A stretch of DNA of 64,000 nucleotides from an uncultured Acidobacteriota bacterium (GCA_963713825.1 CAVQNG010000025.1:736001-800000), one strand, 5' to 3'; counted from the first letter of the stretch, positions 2,905 through 16,006 are shown. Notes: generated by a model from the sequence alone, not told the origin. A program made the numbers and translations.

Positions 2905-4236
2905 TCAGTGTTCCCTCAGTCGTCGGTAGAGGGTGCGCTCCGAGATTCCCAGCCGATCAGCCAGCTGGGCGCGCGAGCCGTCGAAGCGACTGCCCATCCA
3001 TTGGATGTAGCGGGTTTCGACATCGTCGAGAGATAGGATTCGGTCGATGTCGATGGGGATCGGCATCTCGCAGCCCACGTTTGTGTCGTTCGTCCCGATC
3101 AGGGGCAGGTGCTCCCGGTCGATGCGGCCGCTATCGCTGAGTAGGCAGGCGCGTTCCAGCATGTTATGCAGCTCGCGAACATTGCCTGGGAAGCTGTGAG
3201 ACCGCAGCACCTCGAGGGCCTCGTCGGTCAGGTGGCAGTGGCCGCCGCAGCCCAGGCGATCGAAGATGCAAGCGGCCAGCAACGGAATGTCCTCCCATCT
3301 CTCGCGCAGCGTCGGCAGGTGGATCGGAAAGGCACTGATCCGATAGTAGAGGTCTTCGCGGAACTGCTCGGCCTCGACCAGCTTCGTCAGGTCGCGGTGG
3401 GTAGCGCAGACCAATCGGAAGTCGGAGCGCCGCTGCTCGACGCTGCCGACCCGCCGAAAGGTGCCAGTTTCGAGCAGTCGCAGCAGCTTGACCTGCAGCG
3501 ACAGCGGAATGTCCCCCACTTCGTCGAGGAAGAGGGTGCCCTCGTTGGCCACCTCGACCAGACCTCGCTTGCGCTCATGAGCCCCGGTGAAGGAGCCCTT
3601 TTCGTGGCCAAAGAGCTCGCTCTCGAACAGTGTTTCGGTGAGCCCCGAGCAGTCCAGGGGTACGAAGGGACCGCTGCTCCGTGAGCTCAACGAGTGAACC
3701 GCACGGGACACCAGATCCTTGCCGGTACCCGATTCGCCGAGCAGCAGCACCGTCGTCGGGGTGTCAGCGACCCGCGTTACGAGGTCGAGCATGCGCTCGA
3801 AGGCGGGTGATCGCCCGACCATCTGTCCGTCTCGAGAGGACTTGAGGCTGGCGATCTGTTGCGGGGCCAGCACCTCCAGATAGAAGCGGATTCGGCCACG
3901 GTTGTCGCAGAGCGGATGCACGGTGACCGACTCGTGTTGCTCGCCTTCGGCGGTGTGGTGGATGTGCAGCGCCGGACACCGCGTGCCGCTGGCTCGGGCT
4001 CCGGCCAGGGGACAGCTTTCGCCGAGCTGGTCGCAGGGAATCCTGTAGTGGTGAGAGACCTCGTAGCAGTGCTTACCACAGACCCGATCGCCCTCCGCGA
4101 AGTGTTCGCGGTAGGCCTGGTTGGCAGCGACGATCTGATGTTCATCGTTGATGATGACCGCCGGCTCGCGAAGCCCCTCGAGCACCGAGGGCAGCGTGAC
4201 GTCCGAGAGGGGGGAGATTCTGTTGCTATCGATCAT
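2905..4236 (-). CDS. PAS-domain sigma-54-dependent transcriptional activator (Fis-type HTH)
   Basis: Walker [41 protein letters not shown]-terminal [15 protein letters not shown]. Confidence 0.95.
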
Positions 4237-4245
4237 GTTTGACTC

Positions 4246-4710
4246 TCAGCGGCCGGGGCCGTTGCCTCTCTGCCCGTGTCCGCCGCGTCCCCCCATCGCT
4301 CCCTGACCGGGACCCCCCTGCCAGGCGCCGACGCCATCCCAGAGCGGGATACGGTGGAGCGTGCGCAGGCGCAGCATGGTGTGGCGGGTCAGGTTCTGGA
4401 CCTTGTGCACCTTGGCGGGTCCATCATCGGCTGGGAAGACTCGAGCTTGTATCTGGTCCCCCTGTTCGACCTGGAAATCAACTTCATCTAGGGCGGCTTT
4501 GGGTGCCAGCAGGAGGTCCATTTTCTTCCCCTCTGCTCCCGTGGGTGCGAGGGTTACCGACAGGACTTCGAGATCGCCCTCACCCGGTGCCGATGCGACG
4601 CTCAGAACCGTGCCCTCGACCGTGATGAGCGAGGAGCGCAGATCGTCCTTGGAGCTGGCCCCGATCAGCATGAGCACCGCAAGGCAGATTGCTGCAAATC
4701 GGAGCCTCAT
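4246..4710 (-). CDS. Exported OB-fold-like protein with Gly-rich tail
   Basis: ATG at 4710 overlaps the upstream TGA (ATGA). Signal peptide MRLRFAAICLAVL; TVEGTV...GDQIQARV...LR...PLW pattern resembles small MamS/MamX-like OB-fold proteins (recall, unverified). Confidence 0.7.
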   Translation of the reverse strand: MRLRFAAICLAVLMLIGASSKDDLRSSLITVEGTVLSVASAPGEGDLEVLSVTLAPTGAEGKKMDLLLAPKAALDEVDFQVEQGDQIQARVFPADDGPAKVHKVQNLTRHTMLRLRTLHRIPLWDGVGAWQGGPGQGAMGGRGGHGQRGNGPGR

Positions 4711-5621
4711 CGCACGGGTCCCCGGGTACCTACGGTTGGTGTCGAGACACCGAAGGAAGTGCCGAAGAGAATCGTGAAGTCCTGAGCGGCGTCCGTTAGC
4801 CCGAGAGTAGTGAGAAGGCGCCAGCGCATCTTGCCAAGACTGCGCAGGCCGAAGCCCAATGCCGCCCTTGAGCCCAGGCCATCGACGACTTCGGGATTGC
4901 CCTCCACCCAACCCGACAGGATCAACCGGCCGCCCAGTGGTTCACTCTCGACACCGACGTAGCCCTCGACAACGTCGTTCAGGGTCTGCCAATCGGGATC
5001 GCCCAGGTAGTTCCAGCCGAAACCGCCGAAGCCCGTGGCGGACCAGAACCGGTACTCACTTGTCAGACCGAGGTAGGCGTCCCACTCGCCGGTGCCGAGC
5101 CCTTCGTCGGGATCGGCGGTCGGTACCTTCACTTGCGCTCCGAGATCCATTCGAAAGACCTTGGCACCACCTCCCATCAGGCGCCGGCTGCCAGCCAATC
5201 GAACATCTCCCAGGCCGGAGACCCACTCGTCCTCGACGGTGGTGACCGGGTCCGAGGTCTGGCCGTCGCTCGAGTCGGATCCGGTGCCCCCGGCCGAGCC
5301 GTTGCCGGAATTCGAAGAGATCTGGCTGGCGCTCTGCCCGCCAGATCCGTGCGGTCCTCGCGGCTTTCCCGGTACCGGTCCCTGTCCACTCGGGATGGGT
5401 GCGCCGAGTTCCTTCCGCAGAAAGCCGACGTCGGCTCTGAACTGGTACTTGTCGCCGGTCACGAAGGTGAGCTGGCCAGCTTGGGCAGCGGTATCAGTGT
5501 CGGTACCATAGCTCGCCTGCGTGATTCCACCCAGTAGGAAGAGCTCACCACTGAAAGCGACTACTGGGGTCGACGCCAGCAGGGCCGCGACGATGAGGAG
5601 AACGACAGTTTTGTCAGACAT
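4707..5621 (-). CDS. Putative outer-membrane beta-barrel (MetA-pathway/transporter-like) protein
   Basis: Signal peptide from ATG 5621; SGLGDV...KVPTAD...GLGTGEWD motif typical of this family; alternating beta strands; Gly/Ser-rich insert. Confidence 0.7.
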   Translation of the reverse strand: MSDKTVVLLIVAALLASTPVVAFSGELFLLGGITQASYGTDTDTAAQAGQLTFVTGDKYQFRADVGFLRKELGAPIPSGQGPVPGKPRGPHGSGGQSASQISSNSGNGSAGGTGSDSSDGQTSDPVTTVEDEWVSGLGDVRLAGSRRLMGGGAKVFRMDLGAQVKVPTADPDEGLGTGEWDAYLGLTSEYRFWSATGFGGFGWNYLGDPDWQTLNDVVEGYVGVESEPLGGRLILSGWVEGNPEVVDGLGSRAALGFGLRSLGKMRWRLLTTLGLTDAAQDFTILFGTSFGVSTPTVGTRGPVR

Positions 5622-5677
5622 GATCGATTCAGCGGGTCGTCGAGCAAGATCGAGTGTCGAATACGGCATACAGCACC

Positions 5678-5692
5678 GCAATTCCTGTGCCA
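5678..5692 (-). promoter_or_regulatory. Sigma-54 (-24/-12) promoter for the 5621-4246 genes
   Basis: Minus strand reads TGGCACAGGAATTGC, matching TGGCAC-N5-TTGC, about 57 bp upstream of ATG 5621. Confidence 0.85.
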
Positions 5693-5730
5693 TCCTGAGC
5701 CCTCGATTCGACACCTTCGAGCGCCCGATG

Positions 5731-5760
5731 TTCGACAATTTCGTCGAATACGGTCCTCGG

Positions 5761-5778
<18 letters not shown>
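5731..5778. promoter_or_regulatory. Candidate tandem enhancer (UAS) sites
   Basis: TTCGACAATTTCGTCGAA palindrome, then TACGACGATTCTTGCCG 31 bp later; the same pair occurs at 9547-9594. Confidence 0.6.
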
Positions 5779-7134
<1,356 letters not shown>

Positions 7135-7145
7135 GCCTCTGCCTT

Positions 7146-8762
7146 TCAGTCGATTGGGAGCTTCATCACCGCTTCTGCTCCGCCATCTTCGAGATTGACT
7201 AGGGTCACCGATCCTCCATGGTCCTCGGCAACCCGCTTGACCAGTGCCAAGCCAAGCCCGGTGCCGGAATCTCGGCCCGTCACGAAGGGATCGAAAAACC
7301 TGCCGTCCAACTCCGGGTCGAGCCCTGGTCCCTGGTCCTGAATGCGAATCAGTGCCATGCCGTTGTGCTCTGCCGCTTGCACGGCAATCCGCCCCCCAGA
7401 GGGGCTAGCCTGAATAGCGTTGCGAATGAGGTTGATCATGGCTCTGTGGATGGATTGCCGGTCAATCCTCGCGGAAGCCGAGCCGGAGACCTCCTCGAGC
7501 AGCACGCCTCGATCGGCAGCTTCTTCGGACATCAGGTCCAAGACCTCCCGCGCGATGGTCACCAGATCGGTTTCGGAGCGCCGGTCGGACACCGGGCTCG
7601 CCAATTCGAGAAAACCCCGCAGAACTCCTTCGAGGCGGCCAATCTCTGCCCGAATGCGACCGGCAATGCGCCGCAACTCGGTGTTGTCGGGCAACTTTCT
7701 CTCGAGGCGTTGAGCTGCCAGGCCGATGGCGTTCATCGGGCTCCGAACTTCGTGGGCCATTCCCGCCGTCAAGGCACCGGCGGCAGCCAGTCGCTCGCTG
7801 CGACGTCGTGCAGTCTCGGCCTCGGCTAGCCGTTGACTGGCCTCCTCACGCTCACGGGCGCGCAGTCGACTGACGACGGCGAACCCGGCCGCGCTGACGG
7901 CGAAGCCGGTCAGGATCAGCCCGAGTAACAGGGACCTCCACATGGTCTGCGAGGCCGTTCGTTGGAGTCCGCTACCGTCCAAGCCGACGCGTAGGGCAGC
8001 GCTGGTTCCGGCCGGTGATTCGATGGGCATTTCCACTTCTAGAGCGGTCTGCCCGCGGAGATCGAAGAGTCGCTGGTTCGATGGCGGCCTCGGTGGCACG
8101 GCGCCATCGTCCCAGGCGACGTCGACCACATTCCCAGAAGGTTCCTCGCGATAGCTGAGGTAGAGCACCCCTCCTGCGCCTACCAGTCTTTGCAGCAGGT
8201 TCTCGACCCCGAGCCGACGCGCGAAGGTTCGGGCCGTAGACGGATGAACTCGGACCAGCACTACGCCTCCGGAGGGCGTTCGCACAGCAGCGCCCAGATG
8301 CTCGACACCGTCTTCGAGTGAGGTGCCCAGAACAACCTCATCGGCGTCTTTGTTGAAGAGGTCTTGTAGCTCGTCTTTGACCCTTTCGGGCACCCCTTCC
8401 CCCAGGAGCTGGCGTTCTTGCTGGTCTGAGTCATAGAAGACGACCGAGTCGAGGCCGTTGTTGGCCGCCAGATCTTCGAGCAGCTCCTGGTCGTCTCTCC
8501 CAGCCTGTCGCAGCTCCGCCAGGAGGCGCGCGTTGTCGAGCATCTTCCAGGCAATGATCTCGTCGAGCTCGCGGCTGGCATGGGATGCGGCCACCAGCCC
8601 TGGTCCGAGCGACCTCGCCAGGACGGTGGCTTGTGCGGTGAGCGCTGCCTGGACCTGGCTGCGCTGATGGCGCGCTTCGAGGATAGTCCAGCTGAATAGC
8701 AGGACAGCCAGCAGCAGGGAGAAGACAACTAAGGTACGGGCGCGAGCTGGGCTCACGGGCAC
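7146..8762 (-). CDS. Membrane sensor histidine kinase
   Basis: Two TM segments flank a periplasmic domain; H-box AHEVRSP, N-box NLIRNA, DQGPG, GTGLGL. Confidence 0.95.
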   Translation of the reverse strand: MPVSPARARTLVVFSLLLAVLLFSWTILEARHQRSQVQAALTAQATVLARSLGPGLVAASHASRELDEIIAWKMLDNARLLAELRQAGRDDQELLEDLAANNGLDSVVFYDSDQQERQLLGEGVPERVKDELQDLFNKDADEVVLGTSLEDGVEHLGAAVRTPSGGVVLVRVHPSTARTFARRLGVENLLQRLVGAGGVLYLSYREEPSGNVVDVAWDDGAVPPRPPSNQRLFDLRGQTALEVEMPIESPAGTSAALRVGLDGSGLQRTASQTMWRSLLLGLILTGFAVSAAGFAVVSRLRAREREEASQRLAEAETARRRSERLAAAGALTAGMAHEVRSPMNAIGLAAQRLERKLPDNTELRRIAGRIRAEIGRLEGVLRGFLELASPVSDRRSETDLVTIAREVLDLMSEEAADRGVLLEEVSGSASARIDRQSIHRAMINLIRNAIQASPSGGRIAVQAAEHNGMALIRIQDQGPGLDPELDGRFFDPFVTGRDSGTGLGLALVKRVAEDHGGSVTLVNLEDGGAEAVMKLPID

Positions 8763-8859: not shown

Positions 8860-9381
8860 TCAACCTCTGCCGTTGCCGCCGCGGTTTCCACCACCGCCAC
8901 CGCCTCCACCACGGTTGCCGCCACCCTGGCCTCCGCCCTGGCAGTTGCCGTTTCCAGTCCCCTGGTTGTTCCCACGCTGATGTCCCGCTCCGGAGCCATC
9001 CCGGAGCCGCTGCTGGGTCCCGACCATCTGGCCACCCTGGTTCTTGTAAGAGCTCATCTGTCTGTTGCGTTTCACCTTCATCGATTGCACCTGTCCAGCC
9101 TGGCCCCCAGATCCCTGCATGACCCGGGCCCGAACCTGGTCTCCGACCTGCACGCAATCGGCGCACTGGCCTGCTCGACCCAGCCTCAGCTGCATCTCCT
9201 CGCCCTGTCGGGTTCTGATGGTGAAGTGATCGAACTCGCCATCGTTCTGGGTCTGTTGCTGCTGTTGGAGTTGGATCACCTCTCCTCGCACCTTCTGGGT
9301 ACTCTCCTGAGCCGAGAGGGGGAGGGTGGTGTAGAGGGCCGCCACGATTATCAGGGTCATGATCTTTGCTGCTCGTTTCAT
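8860..9381 (-). CDS. Exported OB-fold-like protein with Gln/Gly/Asn-rich tail
   Basis: GGAGG RBS, ATG 9381, signal ending LSA-Q; VRGEV...VGDQVRARV resembles the 4246-4710 protein; CADC motif; RGGGGG tail. Confidence 0.8.
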   Translation of the reverse strand: MKRAAKIMTLIIVAALYTTLPLSAQESTQKVRGEVIQLQQQQQTQNDGEFDHFTIRTRQGEEMQLRLGRAGQCADCVQVGDQVRARVMQGSGGQAGQVQSMKVKRNRQMSSYKNQGGQMVGTQQRLRDGSGAGHQRGNNQGTGNGNCQGGGQGGGNRGGGGGGGGNRGGNGRG

Positions 9382-9455
9382 GGTTTCGTTCCTCCGCATT
9401 TCCGCAGTGGGTCTGGTTTGTGAGTCCTCTTTCATGCCCATCAACGGTGGGATAT

Positions 9456-9471
9456 AGCAGAGTTCGTGCCA
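9456..9471 (-). promoter_or_regulatory. Sigma-54 (-24/-12) promoter for the 9381 gene
   Basis: Minus strand reads TGGCACGAACTCTGCT (GG-N10-GC). Confidence 0.8.
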
Positions 9472-9546
9472 GATCTTGAGAGCGTTGTAACTGTTGAGTT
9501 GAATGCTACTTATGAGAGAGGCGTCGCGTTCTCGACGCTTTCTCGC

Positions 9547-9594
9547 TTCGACAATCGCGTCGAATGAGAGGCCTGGCTTCGACGGATCTTGCCG
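9547..9594. promoter_or_regulatory. Candidate tandem enhancer (UAS) sites
   Basis: TTCGACAATCGCGTCGAA, then TTCGACGGATCTTGCCG 31 bp later; mirrors 5731-5778. Confidence 0.6.
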
Positions 9595-9662
9595 CCCGGA
9601 TCGGCGTTGGGATCCGGCATGCTCGCTGAGCGAGACGCTTCTTTGCGCCTGCTCTCCCAAGG

Positions 9663-9693
9663 GCTTGTGATTTTCTTCACAAGCTGTTATGAT
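9663..9693 (+). promoter_or_regulatory. Sigma-70 promoter overlapped by a CRP/FNR-type palindrome
   Basis: TTGTGA-17bp-TATGAT with an extended -10 TG; GCTTGTGA-TTTTCT-TCACAAGC contains TGTGA-N6-TCACA. Confidence 0.65.
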
Positions 9694-9699
9694 CCTTTC

Positions 9700-9910
9700 A
9701 AGTTAGCTCGAAAGAGCTGGAGAGTATTGACTGGGAGGTTCCCCTTTCGAAGAGTGTTTTCCTACCAACTCTATCGGAGATCGCAAGATCTCGAACGCCT
9801 CTAGATACTCCTATCCCATTCCCTGGAAATCACCAGGGTAAAGTCGAAACCAACCAACCTACAACGGAACCTCCCAATCCTCTCTCTCCGATCGCAAGAT
9901 CGGAGGGGGA
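9700..9910 (+). ncRNA. Candidate structured ncRNA or cis-leader of unknown family
   Basis: Three GNRA-capped hairpins, an 11-bp long-range stem TGGGAGGTTCC/GGAACCTCCCA, a nested TTTCGA/TCGAAA stem and an upstream promoter; no credible ORF. Confidence 0.6.
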
Positions 9911-10187
9911 GCTCCGCGCTGTCTCCTGAGACCAGCAGAATCAGTGATGGGGCCGGTCGAATTTCTTCTCGCCCGCCTCGATGCGGGCCTCCAGACGGTT
10001 CTGTCTCGGGCAGAGCATCCAGACGCAGAGTCTTCCCGGCTACCGTAAAGATCACCGCGCCCCACGATGTTTGTTGATTGATCGTCCCCATGACATTGGG
10101 GATCGAAGTCAGGAATGCTGCAGTTCGTTGGATTGCCCAGTTCGAGTGCGCCGTCTCTGTCCCAGTCTGGCTTAGACTATCCCAGCG

Positions 10188-11273
10188 ATGTCGACCAAAA
10201 AGGAAGGACTCGGTGACAATGAGAGCTTCGAAGTGAGCCGCGATCCAGCATCGATCCGGAGCGGCTCGAGGCAGGCACCTTTCTTCTCGGTCGTGATTCC
10301 CGTACTGAATGGAGGGCCGGTGTTTCGAGAGTCTCTCGCAGCGCTGCACCGATCGTCCTTCAGGGACTTCGAGGTGTGGGTTGTGGATGACGGCTCGACC
10401 GATGGTTCCGTCGCGGCGGCCGAAGAGTCAGGGGCTCGTCTCCTGGGGACTCGGGGACGGCAGGGACCTTCCGTGGCCCGCAATCTGGGGGCTGAGAAGG
10501 CTCGGGGGGAGTTCCTCTTGTTTGTCGATGCCGACTGCAGTGTCGGGCCGGAGACGCTGAGCCTGGCGGCAGCCGCGTTGCGCGCCGACGAATCACTGGA
10601 TGCTCTGTTCGGGTCCTACGATGACGAGCCGGCCGCCCCCGGATGGGTGGCACAGTACAAGAACTTGCAGCACCACTGGGTTCATCAGCAGGGAGCCCCC
10701 GATGCCTCGACCTTCTGGGCCGGTTGCGGCGCGATTCGCCGCCGAGTCTTCCTGGACCTGGGGGGCTTCGACGAGGTTCGCTACCCTCGGCCCACCATCG
10801 AAGACATCGAGTTGGGTTACCGACTACGGGCCTCGGGCCGGCGCATTCGCCTCGCCAAGGAGGTGCAGGTCAAGCACCACAAGGCCTGGTCTCTGCAGAG
10901 CGTCGTTCAGAGCGACCTTTTCGACCGGGGAATCCCCTGGAGTGAGCTCCTCGCCGGTCGTGAAGGACCCGCCAAGGAGCTCAATCTCGGCTCGGGCGGT
11001 CGGCTGAGCGTGGTCTCGGCCGTTCTGTTGCTGGCCTCCTTCGTCCTGATTCTGTTCGAGCCACGCTGGGCTCTTCTGGCTGGCCTCGCCCTCGCAACCT
11101 TGCTCTGGCTGAATAGGGACTTCTACAGGTTTCTATCGTCCAAGCGAGGACCGGCCTTTCTACTCGTAGCTCTACCTCTGCATTGGCTCTACTACCTGAA
11201 TTGCGCCGTCGCGTTTCCTGTCGGCCAGTTGCGCTACCAATGGCGTAAGTTGCTGAAGGCAGTAGGGGCTTAG
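10188..11273 (+). CDS. Family 2 glycosyltransferase with C-terminal membrane helices
   Basis: SVVIP, VDDGSTD, FVDAD, IEDIELG motifs; hydrophobic C-terminus. Confidence 0.92.
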   Translation: MSTKKEGLGDNESFEVSRDPASIRSGSRQAPFFSVVIPVLNGGPVFRESLAALHRSSFRDFEVWVVDDGSTDGSVAAAEESGARLLGTRGRQGPSVARNLGAEKARGEFLLFVDADCSVGPETLSLAAAALRADESLDALFGSYDDEPAAPGWVAQYKNLQHHWVHQQGAPDASTFWAGCGAIRRRVFLDLGGFDEVRYPRPTIEDIELGYRLRASGRRIRLAKEVQVKHHKAWSLQSVVQSDLFDRGIPWSELLAGREGPAKELNLGSGGRLSVVSAVLLLASFVLILFEPRWALLAGLALATLLWLNRDFYRFLSSKRGPAFLLVALPLHWLYYLNCAVAFPVGQLRYQWRKLLKAVGA

Positions 11274-11376: not shown

Positions 11377-12888
11377 TCAACCCTCATGGTGGGATGGGCG
11401 ACTGGGTCGTGCATCTTCTGGGATGCCCCCGATCAGGGCGAGCGTCGCGCTGTACGTCACGATGCCGGCGAGCAGTCGCAGAAGCCAGGACGAGCTCGGT
11501 CCCAGCCAGAGGAGCAGCGCTGTCATCACCGCGGACGCCACGATCGGTTTGATCAGGAGGCCGAACGCAATATCGACTTTCAGCCGCCGACAAGCCAGGT
11601 AGTCGAGAGTCAGGATGAGCCCTTCGGCGATCACCGTGGCGACAGCTGCCCCCATGATGCCGTGCCTGGGGATGAGAATCAGATTCAAGACGATGTTGAG
11701 AGATGCGGCGATCGCCTGGATCCACATCAAGACCCGGGTCCGGTCGTGGGCCAACAAAGTAATTCCCAACAGGCCGTGCAGGAACATGAACGCGACGCTG
11801 ACGAGGAGCAGGCGAAAGGCGTCGGCTCCCTCGCCGTACTCGGGACCGAACAGATTGACGAGAAGCGGGCCGGCGAGGAGGATCCCGCCTGTAGCCATGG
11901 GGATTGCGAGCGCGGCGCAAAACTCGAGGGCTCGATTGACGAGCTGACTGACCTCCTGGGACGATCGGTGGGCGGCTCTGGAGAGAGCGGGTAGATAGGC
12001 CACCTGCAGGGAGTGGCCGATGAGGATGACGAGAAAGCAGATTCGATAGGCCGCTGTGTAAAGGCCAACGGCGATCTCCCCAATCAGCAGGGAGAGTAGG
12101 ACGACATCGAAAACGTTGATCAGGGCGCGGAGCAATTGGCCAATGACGAAAGGGACCGAGGCTCGAAAGATCGACCGGGCCTTGTCCAGATCGGGGGTCC
12201 AGGGAGATCCCTTGAAGAGAGGCACGGCCAGATAGGCAGCCCCAACAAGCTCACCGAAGAGGACGCAGATCGGCACCCAGAGAATATTCTCGGGTCCGCG
12301 GACGACAAGAAAGAGCGCCGCCACATAGACGGCCTGTCCCAGGATCAGGCTGATTCCGACGCGACGGTTTCTCGCCAGCCCCTTGTACACCCAGCCGGTG
12401 TCCAGGGACAGGGAGATGTAAGTGAGGGCGGTGAGCATGACGACCCACTTGACGATCTCCGGCTTGTCGAGCACCAGGGTTCCCAGATAGGTCAGCAGAA
12501 AGACCCCGCTTGCAAGAGCCAGACGCAGCACGATGACCCCGCCGGTCACGGGCGCGATTTGACCTGGGTGGCGGGCCACCTCGCGTGCCCCCACAGGACC
12601 GAAACCGGCCCTCAGAGCAATTGCGAAGTAGCTGCAAACTGCGGTGGCGAAGCCGATGACGCCGAATCCGTAGACTCCGAGTCGGCGCGCGAGATAAGCG
12701 GTGCCGATGAAAGCGACCGCCTTCGAAATGACGATTCCGCTGCCCAGGGATAGAAAATTGTCCAACACGGTACTGGACCCCATTGGACTGTCGGGCGATT
12801 GGCTCCGATTGTCCGAGGTCGAGCCTTCGAGACCATGATCGATCTGGGTACCGTCGGCGTCGGGGAGTTCGGATTCAGCAGCGGCCAA
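11377..12888 (-). CDS. Wzx/MOP-family oligosaccharide flippase (start uncertain; alternative ATG 12783)
   Basis: Many TM helices; LARRLG..FG, VGLYTAAYR, LNLILIPRHGIMGAAVAT signature. Confidence 0.9.
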   Translation of the reverse strand: MAAAESELPDADGTQIDHGLEGSTSDNRSQSPDSPMGSSTVLDNFLSLGSGIVISKAVAFIGTAYLARRLGVYGFGVIGFATAVCSYFAIALRAGFGPVGAREVARHPGQIAPVTGGVIVLRLALASGVFLLTYLGTLVLDKPEIVKWVVMLTALTYISLSLDTGWVYKGLARNRRVGISLILGQAVYVAALFLVVRGPENILWVPICVLFGELVGAAYLAVPLFKGSPWTPDLDKARSIFRASVPFVIGQLLRALINVFDVVLLSLLIGEIAVGLYTAAYRICFLVILIGHSLQVAYLPALSRAAHRSSQEVSQLVNRALEFCAALAIPMATGGILLAGPLLVNLFGPEYGEGADAFRLLLVSVAFMFLHGLLGITLLAHDRTRVLMWIQAIAASLNIVLNLILIPRHGIMGAAVATVIAEGLILTLDYLACRRLKVDIAFGLLIKPIVASAVMTALLLWLGPSSSWLLRLLAGIVTYSATLALIGGIPEDARPSRPSHHEG

Positions 12889-15220: not shown

Positions 15221-16006
15221 ATGGAGCTAAAGGGTCGGATCGCGCTGGTCACCGGCGCCGCTCACCGGCTGGGCAAGGCTGTCGCGACGGCTTTGGCAGC
15301 AGAGGGATGCCACCTGGTCGTCCACTTCGGCCGCTCGGCGCGACAAGCCGCCCAGACCGTCGACGAATTGTCGGCCGTGGGGGTAGAGGCGGTGGCGATG
15401 GCAGCCGACCTCTCGCAGGAGGACGAGATCGAGGGGCTCTTCTCGCGGGTCGAAACCCAGTTTGGCAAGCTCGACATTCTCGTCAACAGCGCGGCTAGTT
15501 TCGAGCAGCAGGCATTCGACGCTGTGCGAGCCGAAGACTGGGATCGGGTCATGGCGGTGAATCTGCGAGCCCCTTTTCTCTGCACCCGACAAGCCGCCCG
15601 GCTGATGAGAGCGAGCCGACGGGAAGAAGAGCTGCCGGCACTGGTCGTAAACATGGTCGATCTCAGCGCCGTCTCGCCCTGGCCGGGGTACGTCCAGCAT
15701 GGCGTCAGCAAAGCGGGATTGCTTCAGTTGACTAGAATCGCTGCCAGGGAGTTGGCTCCGGGGGTACGAGTCAACGCGATTCTGCCGGGCGCAGTCCTCC
15801 CCCCACCCGGGATGGAAGCGCAGAGTGAGCAATGGCGGAAGATGGGCGAGCTTCTGCCGGTCGGTCGGACTGGTGAGCCTTCCCAGGTTGGTCGAACGGC
15901 AGTTTTCTTGGCGCAAAACGACTTCATAACCGGCGAAGTGATCTTCGTCGACGGTGGAGAGCATCTCCTTGGTGCGGGTCATCGTCGGTCGGTCGAGGAG
16001 ATCTGA
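15221..16006 (+). CDS. Pteridine reductase-like SDR (FolM/PTR1 type)
   Basis: VTGAAHRLG, LVNSA, catalytic region HGVSK; lies next to folB and folK. Confidence 0.82.
   Translation: MELKGRIALVTGAAHRLGKAVATALAAEGCHLVVHFGRSARQAAQTVDELSAVGVEAVAMAADLSQEDEIEGLFSRVETQFGKLDILVNSAASFEQQAFDAVRAEDWDRVMAVNLRAPFLCTRQAARLMRASRREEELPALVVNMVDLSAVSPWPGYVQHGVSKAGLLQLTRIAARELAPGVRVNAILPGAVLPPPGMEAQSEQWRKMGELLPVGRTGEPSQVGRTAVFLAQNDFITGEVIFVDGGEHLLGAGHRRSVEEI

Follow-up and report, generated by a model that had tools for sequence, protein, structure and literature searches.

The window analysed here is a 64,000-nucleotide stretch from an uncultured Acidobacteriota bacterium (GCA_963713825.1, CAVQNG010000025.1:736001-800000), and within it a predicted RNA of ~210 nt lies on the plus strand at 9700-9911. 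Upstream of the RNA, on the opposite strand, runs a signalling cluster (2905-8762, minus strand) made up of a PAS-domain sigma-54 activator (2905-4236), an NtrC-type response regulator (5761-7134) and a histidine kinase (7146-8762), with which we also count a small ORF with a signal-peptide-like start at 8860-9381; this adjacency to the RNA was not seen in other genomes of the genus. On the other side, outside the RNA, is the decayed remnant of a convergent DUF1684 gene (9947-10103, minus strand). When the intact 311-aa DUF1684 protein of the same genus was used in tblastn, amino acids 197-229 (82%) and 288-310 (78%) were recovered in different frames with the middle missing. Two small ORFs here, at 9859-10065 on the minus strand and 9981-10175 on the plus strand, were considered and set aside, as their translations look non-coding and the region is DUF1684 debris. 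A polysaccharide cluster abuts the remnant, with a GT2 gene at 10188 and a flippase at 11377-12888, and 5.3 kb downstream of the RNA lies an SDR/FabG-like gene (15221-16006, plus strand).

The locus had been described from its sequence as an unannotated structured RNA with its own promoter, and this description is borne out. The minimum free energy (MFE) fold of the plus strand reaches -84.2 kcal/mol (z = -5.91), a value as good as which was found in 0 of 200 shuffles, and the TTGTGA-17-TATGAT promoter lies upstream; the fold of the window RNA is non-random. The minus strand folds with z = -3.38. Every hairpin previously described could be read directly in the window sequence at its coordinates. 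The first of these, P1 (AGCUC-GAAA-GAGCU, 9705-9718), is also in the MFE fold and is specific to the class of copies to which the window belongs (class A, defined below). A closing stem of 11 perfect base pairs, P2, joins the Shine-Dalgarno-like strand UGGGAGGUUCC at 9732-9742 to GGAACCUCCCA at 9866-9876, which contains the anti-Shine-Dalgarno-like CCUCC; the claim of a perfect stem here was correct, and it pairs in 98.3% of the cells of the family alignment. Inside it are three hairpins, likewise as predicted: P3 (AGAGU/ACUCU, 9751-9755 with 9768-9772), whose loop bears an invariant CCUACC at 9761-9766; P4 (GAGAUC-GCAA-GAUCUC, 9777-9792); and P5 (CCCUGG-N6-CCAGGG, 9821-9826 with 9833-9838), directly after which comes the conserved GGGUAAAG. 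A second invariant CCNACC, in the overlapping form CCAACCAACC, occupies the unpaired 3' junction at 9850-9859. One proposed element did not survive, namely a second stem pairing 9745-9750 with 9844-9849, which is missing from the MFE fold and contributes no pair to the best 45 pairs by mutual information (MI).

The RNA start near 9700 is taken from the position of the -10 element and its end is placed at the 3' hairpin. This hairpin is present and capped by GCAA as had been claimed; its extent in the MFE fold is 14 bp at 9880-9911, where 13 bp at 9881-9910 had been given. It carries no U tract and may act as a terminator or as a stabiliser. Conservation of this particular hairpin is limited to the genus, where it shows G-U and compensatory changes, while other genera have different hairpins at the 3' end, some of which are canonical terminators. 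The assignment to the plus strand is confirmed by the first covariance model (R1), which scored 207.9 bits on the plus strand (match 9703-9878) against 27.7 bits on the minus strand. The earlier argument that the GNRA loops by themselves fix the strand cannot be kept, because the GCAA loop of P4 occurs in the window copy only, four same-genus relatives having UCAA in its place.

Public sequencing data give a hint of expression. Part of the stretch is contained in 13 runs recorded as RNA, four of which were mapped onto the window, the others holding small shares of it. For two runs of one study (X2 and X3) the contigs on 9200-10600 are confined to 9717-9870, the core of the RNA, and one of these core contigs, 154 nt long, shows 0 differences to the window. 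In the other study, pieces from X1 are spread over much of 9661-10523 and leave a hole at 10048-10050, and a 684-nt contig from X4 follows the core to 9894 before becoming unlike the window and like a same-genus variant. These contigs, which carry no information on RNA ends, strand or level and could include DNA carry-over, hint at an abundant core transcript, and the bare flanks in X2 and X3 add a weak hint to the same effect.

A structured RNA family of one order

Acidobacteriota are abundant in soils and sediments and remain mostly uncultured, and to our knowledge almost no regulatory RNAs have been characterised in them. A BLAST search with the RNA against its own genome returned the locus itself as the sole match; across the genus the region was found in four of five other genomes at 82-92% identity, and partially in two further genera. 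Model R1 reached further, finding another copy of the RNA on contig 3 of the window's genome as well as matches in 35 of the 45 genomes of the family, often two per genome, and in 60 of the 151 genomes of the order. A second model, R2, was built from 48 matches and scores the window copy at 149.2 bits. It found matches in 114 of the 151 genomes of the order (95 of 126 when restricted to high-quality genomes) and in 55 of 64 genera. All 12 families of the order had at least one match, with uneven coverage, one genus standing at 0 of 19 and one family at 7 of 21. A class-level sample gave R2 matches in 14 of the 36 genomes belonging to the order and in 0 of the 114 belonging to other orders of the class, the latter drawn from ten other families.

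An exact-pattern scan using one genome per species reported 86 stretches, with 80 loci among the matches listed, and R2 confirmed 62 of these 80. The record titles of the 62 true loci name Acidobacteriota, Acidobacteria or Thermoanaerobaculia except in four cases (one Solirubrobacterales, one 'uncultured bacterium' and two 'Candidatus Multivoradales'). The remaining 18, with titles such as Dehalococcoidia, Thermococcus or Planctomycetota, are chance occurrences with no real R2 match. The RNA family is thus confined to one order of Acidobacteriota, by record titles Thermoanaerobaculia. One unpublished genome (G006, locus L046) contributes a single row to alignments A4 to A6 and a single item to the family, order, promoter and neighbour counts, and no statement here rests on that genome alone.

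We then have the question of whether the predicted helices are supported by covariation, on which alignment A6 (111 matches, 102 of them distinct, with covariation computed over the 102) is informative. Model pairs were complementary in 88.6% of cells against 72.6% in shuffled alignments, and the covariation score of 0.385 compares with 0.142 for shuffles, 0 of 500 of which reached 0.385, and with 0.05-0.08 when the partners were slid. Double changes occur in 29 of the 33 pairs, so the compensatory changes looked for among homologs were found across 102 distinct copies, and an earlier 48-row alignment gave a similar result. It should be considered that these alignments are biased towards the model because they were fitted to it, a bias which is partly countered by the slid-partner control and by an alignment made with MAFFT. 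In the latter, which covers seven genomes, the promoter, P1 and P2 are invariant (P1 except for its loop) and P5 changes from U-A to C-G in two of the seven rows.

The helices differ in their support. Paired cells amount to 98.3% for P2, 95.3% for P4, 89.1% for P5, 76.6% for P1 and 63.1% for P3, so that P3 is weak across the family; the low figure for P1 arises because the 5' ends of the copies with sigma-54 promoters are not homologous to it. P4 shows double changes in six of six pairs and supplies top MI pairs, and P5 changes from U-A to C-G or G-C in 16-23 of the 102 rows. P2 has a double change somewhere in nine of its 11 pairs, yet its sequence scarcely changes, five positions being G-C in 98-100 of the 102 rows. 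These data support the closing stem P2 and the inner hairpins P4 and P5. The top 14 pairs of the MI analysis all fall inside the model structure, and in a search for extra helices or pseudoknots (MI with APC) none of the 45 top pairs was both high-scoring and Watson-Crick.

Letters outside the helices are conserved as well. They comprise CCnACC twice (9761-9766 and within 9850-9859), uCCCcu and GGGUAnAnCCa. Both copies of CCnACC, together with uCCCcu and CCUCCC, are each at least 90% conserved, CCnACC and uCCCcu in unpaired columns, and in CCNACC it is the central base which varies while the flanks are invariant. In the closing helix, GGGAGGUUC/GAACCUCCC, the sequence likewise hardly varies. 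The original prediction had noted unpaired segments rich in C, A and U, with a repeated CCUA motif; the segments are C/A-rich and a motif is indeed repeated, its family-wide invariant form being CCNACC, present twice.

Rfam 15 at gathering score gave 0 matches in the 64-kb window and 0 in the loci of 20 relatives holding diverse members of the family. With E relaxed to 10, two noise matches were all that appeared over 9350-10250, and the relatives gave unrelated noise that differed from member to member. The original prediction had found no match to a known RNA, and the comparison with Rfam, 6S RNA included, agrees, as no family matched in the window. The 6S RNA (RF00013) merits mention since it resembles the present RNA in length, in having its own promoter and in wide conservation; it is however a rod with a central bubble where the window RNA has a multi-branch junction, and the 6S gene of this genome lies elsewhere (contig 5, 66.9 bits). 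Two Acidobacteria-specific Rfam motifs, Acido-1 (RF01686) and Acido-Lenti-1 (RF01687), are like the present family in being candidate non-coding RNAs that occur in this phylum alone (PMC2864571); neither matched over 9350-10250 at E up to 10 or in the 20 relatives' loci at gathering score. A literature search that took in passages of PMC2864571 and the main text of PMC5737381 turned up no description of the RNA, and the main text of PMC5737381 does not contain 'Acidobacteri', 'mutY', 'sigma-54' or 'dnaA'. What lies at 9700-9911 is a member of a previously uncatalogued, strongly conserved structured RNA family of ~170-210 nt.

Two promoter classes and a shared palindrome

The promoter TTGTGA-17-TATGAT had been placed just upstream of the RNA, and a promoter scan upheld this, with the site at 9665-9693: it is the only such site within 1 kb (0.4 expected), and a preceding TG makes it an extended -10 promoter (TGtTATGAT, 9685-9693, plus strand) with a -35-like TTGTGA at 9665-9670. 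Overlapping the -35 region is a perfect palindrome, CTTGTGA-N6-TCACAAG (9664-9683), which spans about -35 to -18, has its centre ~26.5 nt upstream of the predicted start and is invariant in seven genomes of three genera. Just upstream of this promoter on the plus strand there are also two short terminator-like hairpins with T-rich tails, at 9622-9634 and 9651-9664 (two found, 0.7 expected), and no plus-strand gene precedes them.

Over the 102 distinct copies the window's promoter type is the minority. A sigma-54 type was found for 76, the palindrome with an extended -10 for 22 (hereafter class A), and neither for four, two of which have no upstream sequence. The sigma-54 pattern, GGCA[CT]-N5-TTGC[AT] (-24/-12), ends 0-27 nt upstream of the RNA in 76 of the 102, and the control counts were 0 of 102 for the reverse complement, 1 of 93 for windows far upstream and 1 of 90 for windows downstream. 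In class A, TGnTAnnnT ends 9-11 nt upstream of the model start in 22 of 22. The palindrome TTGTGA-N6-TCACAA occurs in 26 of the 102 true upstream windows, and in 0 of 93 and 0 of 90 control windows.

The window's genome holds one copy of each kind. Its second copy stands behind a -24/-12 promoter of sigma-54 type, and no -24 GG/-12 GC element is present directly upstream of the window copy; a gene for RpoN is also there. When a FastTree tree was rooted on a sigma-54 copy, all 22 palindrome copies grouped in one clade that contained no outsider (support 0.926), and the window copy is therefore a derived paralog with a replaced promoter. The palindrome is not restricted to the derived form, as it also follows immediately on the -12 element, lying over the expected start, in four same-genus sigma-54 copies, one of which is the second copy of the window's genome.

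At both promoter types the palindrome is placed where a bound protein would block polymerase, and because of this we regard it as a likely operator for a dimeric transcription factor acting as a repressor. Its half-sites are ones which we take to resemble CRP-family sites. Perfect TTGTGA-N6-TCACAA sites number only three in the 5.4-Mb genome, with 0 for a reversed-pattern control, and the other two have no matching -10 element and no RNA homolog beside them, so that no regulon can be defined. These two sites lie at contig 1: 337005-337022 and contig 5: 532324-532341 of the window's genome (G000; L165 and L166), the former ~8 kb from hfq and beside an apparent minus-strand tRNA gene. Separately, at four loci (L142-L145) a conserved inverted repeat, ACTGT-N7-ACAGT, was seen ~60-80 nt upstream of the -24 element, and this may be an enhancer site for the activator of the genus's second RNA copy. 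A sigma-54 activator domain was found in 0 of 60 tested ORFs of 23 sigma-54-class loci.

Gene neighbourhood and candidate functions

The reading which we think somewhat better than even is that the family is a stand-alone, signal-controlled, trans-acting regulatory RNA working through conserved C-rich single strands. The common form carries a sigma-54 promoter and lies just upstream of mutY. In the window's clade that promoter has given way to an extended -10 sigma-70 promoter lying under the palindrome, where a dimeric factor would bind and repress transcription of the RNA. The helices may then serve to hold two CCNACC motifs, UCCCC and ACCUCCC single-stranded in a fixed arrangement, and the C-rich motifs might pair with G-rich RNA targets or bind a partner. 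A novel sRNA was one of the possibilities raised in the original prediction, and it is supported by family-wide conservation, by the fold, by the RNA's own promoters and by the lack of any Rfam match. Hfq is present in the genome and CsrA was not found in it. Several points can be brought against this reading: the mutY linkage of the sigma-54 form could signify a cis or co-transcriptional role, an invariant closing helix with an ornate junction is found more typically in RNAs that bind protein or ligand than in sRNAs that simply pair, and a U-tract terminator is missing from the window copy, with a terminator-like site at only six of the 22 class A copies. When three unpaired segments were scanned by duplexfold against 3597 crude start windows, with accessibility and conservation ignored, the predicted duplexes were no better than those of shuffles (crude calls of 5317 ORFs; six mononucleotide shuffles per segment).

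A possible but less likely explanation is that the RNA binds protein, as a sponge or as the scaffold of a ribonucleoprotein, with the CCNACC motifs and the GGGAGGUUCC/GGAACCUCCC helix as recognition sites and with regulated transcription of the RNA titrating the protein; candidates would be proteins of KH, S1 or cold-shock type, Hfq, or a ribosome-associated factor. The lack of any excess of predicted mRNA duplexes is consistent with this, as is the presence of Hfq, and the conservation pattern gives it further weight, P2 being conserved in sequence far beyond the need for pairing while P4 varies freely. The motif copies per RNA are just two or three, though, and known sponges carry far more. 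No RNA-binding protein gene recurs among 60 ORFs at 23 loci either, and CsrA was not found. It is because the Shine-Dalgarno/anti-Shine-Dalgarno-like helix is invariant and the middle base of CCNACC variable that we keep protein binding in consideration.

The gene neighbourhood bears on an unlikely alternative, that of a leader acting in cis, as a riboswitch or as an attenuator under protein control, in which the junction senses a signal and the downstream hairpin is the expression platform. It would control mutY where the promoter is of the sigma-54 class, and SDR, GT2 and other genes in the window's class. A conserved junction followed by a variable hairpin is indeed a riboswitch-like architecture, and another argument for a leader is that 61 of 69 testable sigma-54 loci (0 of 22 in class A) have mutY downstream in the same orientation and no further than 1.6 kb away, at a median distance of 140 nt from the RNA to the best protein match. 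Upstream, the sigma-54 copies have differing neighbours (dnaA, sppA or an AstE/RimK cluster). In many loci a GC-rich hairpin with a U tract stands between RNA and mutY, a further point for a leader. Terminator-like sites, found after 42 of 74 sigma-54 copies, count towards an independent gene. Against this, mutY has its own promoter: a TTGGCN -35 inside a GCCA-N3-TGGC palindrome, followed by a TAGAMT -10 ending ~6 nt before the ATG or GTG start, with no Shine-Dalgarno sequence, so that an RNA reading through would translate mutY poorly. The pattern was seen at L130, L059, L114, L046, L058 and others, 50-180 nt after the RNA, and its palindrome could be a factor-binding site. Given the hairpin with U tract and the separate -35 and -10 lying between them, mutY appears to be a separate transcription unit, probably a leaderless one judging from the position of its -10. 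Tandem copies of the RNA, present at 10 loci among the pattern-scan matches listed, also fit poorly with a leader; a record titled Thermoanaerobaculum sp. (L112) has such a tandem.

Class A has no fixed downstream gene. SDR genes lie 44-97 nt after the RNA at eight loci, a spacing which would suit a leader, GT2 genes 252-310 nt after it at four loci including the window, and a GFO/IDH/MocA gene and an LPG-synthase gene at one locus each, besides unassigned ORFs. These families are unrelated to one another and do not make a coherent co-oriented set. Six of the 22 class A copies face an intact convergent DUF1684 gene and are well conserved all the same. The suggestion that the RNA might be a structured leader of the GT2 gene at 10188 is rejected: GT2 is downstream in only four of 30 loci examined, the downstream gene is convergent in six, and the 280 nt between RNA and GT2 in the window are DUF1684 pseudogene debris and therefore not a structured leader. 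For the sigma-54 class a cis role stays alive because of the mutY linkage. As a separate observation, an SDR/FabG-like gene of the kind found at 15221-16006 directly follows the RNA in three other genera, which suggests that the GT2/flippase block was inserted between the two in the window.

Slightly further down the scale we place a speculative reading, rather unlikely on present evidence, in which the RNA is no simple pairing sRNA but a structured riboregulator, acting on the translation machinery or itself sensing a signal. Here the invariant helix GGGAGGUUCC/GGAACCUCCC would imitate a Shine-Dalgarno/anti-Shine-Dalgarno duplex with the twin CCNACC motifs flanking it, and the RNA might act as a mimic of, or a trap for, the 16S 3' tail, ribosomal protein S1 or a small ligand. 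If so, one order of Acidobacteriota would possess a sigma-54-controlled global switch with a second input through the operator of the paralog. That the locus is no functional RNA at all, and instead a chance-structured intergenic remnant or mobile repeat, is hardly credible: nothing supports it positively, the one point in its favour, function aside, is that the transcript ends are unmapped, and it has to contend with conservation over 55 of 64 genera with compensatory changes, with conserved promoters, and with one to three copies per genome which sit at syntenic sites and are not dispersed, BLAST against the own genome returning the locus only.

Relation to known regulatory RNAs and significance

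The RNA family is new, its general kind is known and its promoter history is unusual. For a stand-alone trans-acting RNA with C-rich single strands, the reading we prefer, the nearest parallels are the C-rich base-pairing sRNAs RsaE/RoxS, 6C, IsrR and LhrC, which are reported to be stand-alone RNAs with several conserved C-rich unpaired motifs on hairpins, some of them multicopy and with transcription set by a signal-responsive regulator (PMC5419742, PMC6486639, PMC9410917, PMC4132741). The present RNA differs from them as so described in being larger, in having a closing helix and multi-helix junction, and in carrying CCNACC in place of UCCC or CCCC. It also belongs to another phylum and shows no sequence or model similarity to them.

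For the pairing of promoters, the closest analogy is with GlmY/GlmZ of enterobacteria, two homologous sRNAs of ~150-200 nt per genome whose promoters are sigma-54, sigma-70 or both across species. There is no homology: no Rfam model matched, the fold is different and we saw no link to glmS or RapZ, and here the sigma-70 paralog bears a putative palindromic operator. CrcZ/CrcY and Qrr are sigma-54-dependent sRNAs with -24/-12 elements directly upstream and tandem or multiple copies, features which the present family shares, and CrcZ has C/A-rich unpaired motifs. In contrast to these, the family matches no such model, has no enhancer-binding-protein gene beside the RNA (0 of 60 ORFs at 23 loci) and is missing the A-rich Hfq/Crc motif of CrcZ, and the window copy has no sigma-54 promoter.

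The family numbers more than 100 distinct members, has a fold backed by covariation and occurs across nearly the whole order; it is a ready candidate for an Rfam entry. It also records an evolutionary event in which a paralog exchanged a sigma-54 for a sigma-70 promoter and kept its RNA core, the same palindrome being found at both promoter types inside one genus. Two promoters, one putative operator and a set of invariant motifs provide handles for experiment. The ancestral form is tightly linked to mutY, with dnaA close by in several genera, a hint of some connection with DNA repair or replication.
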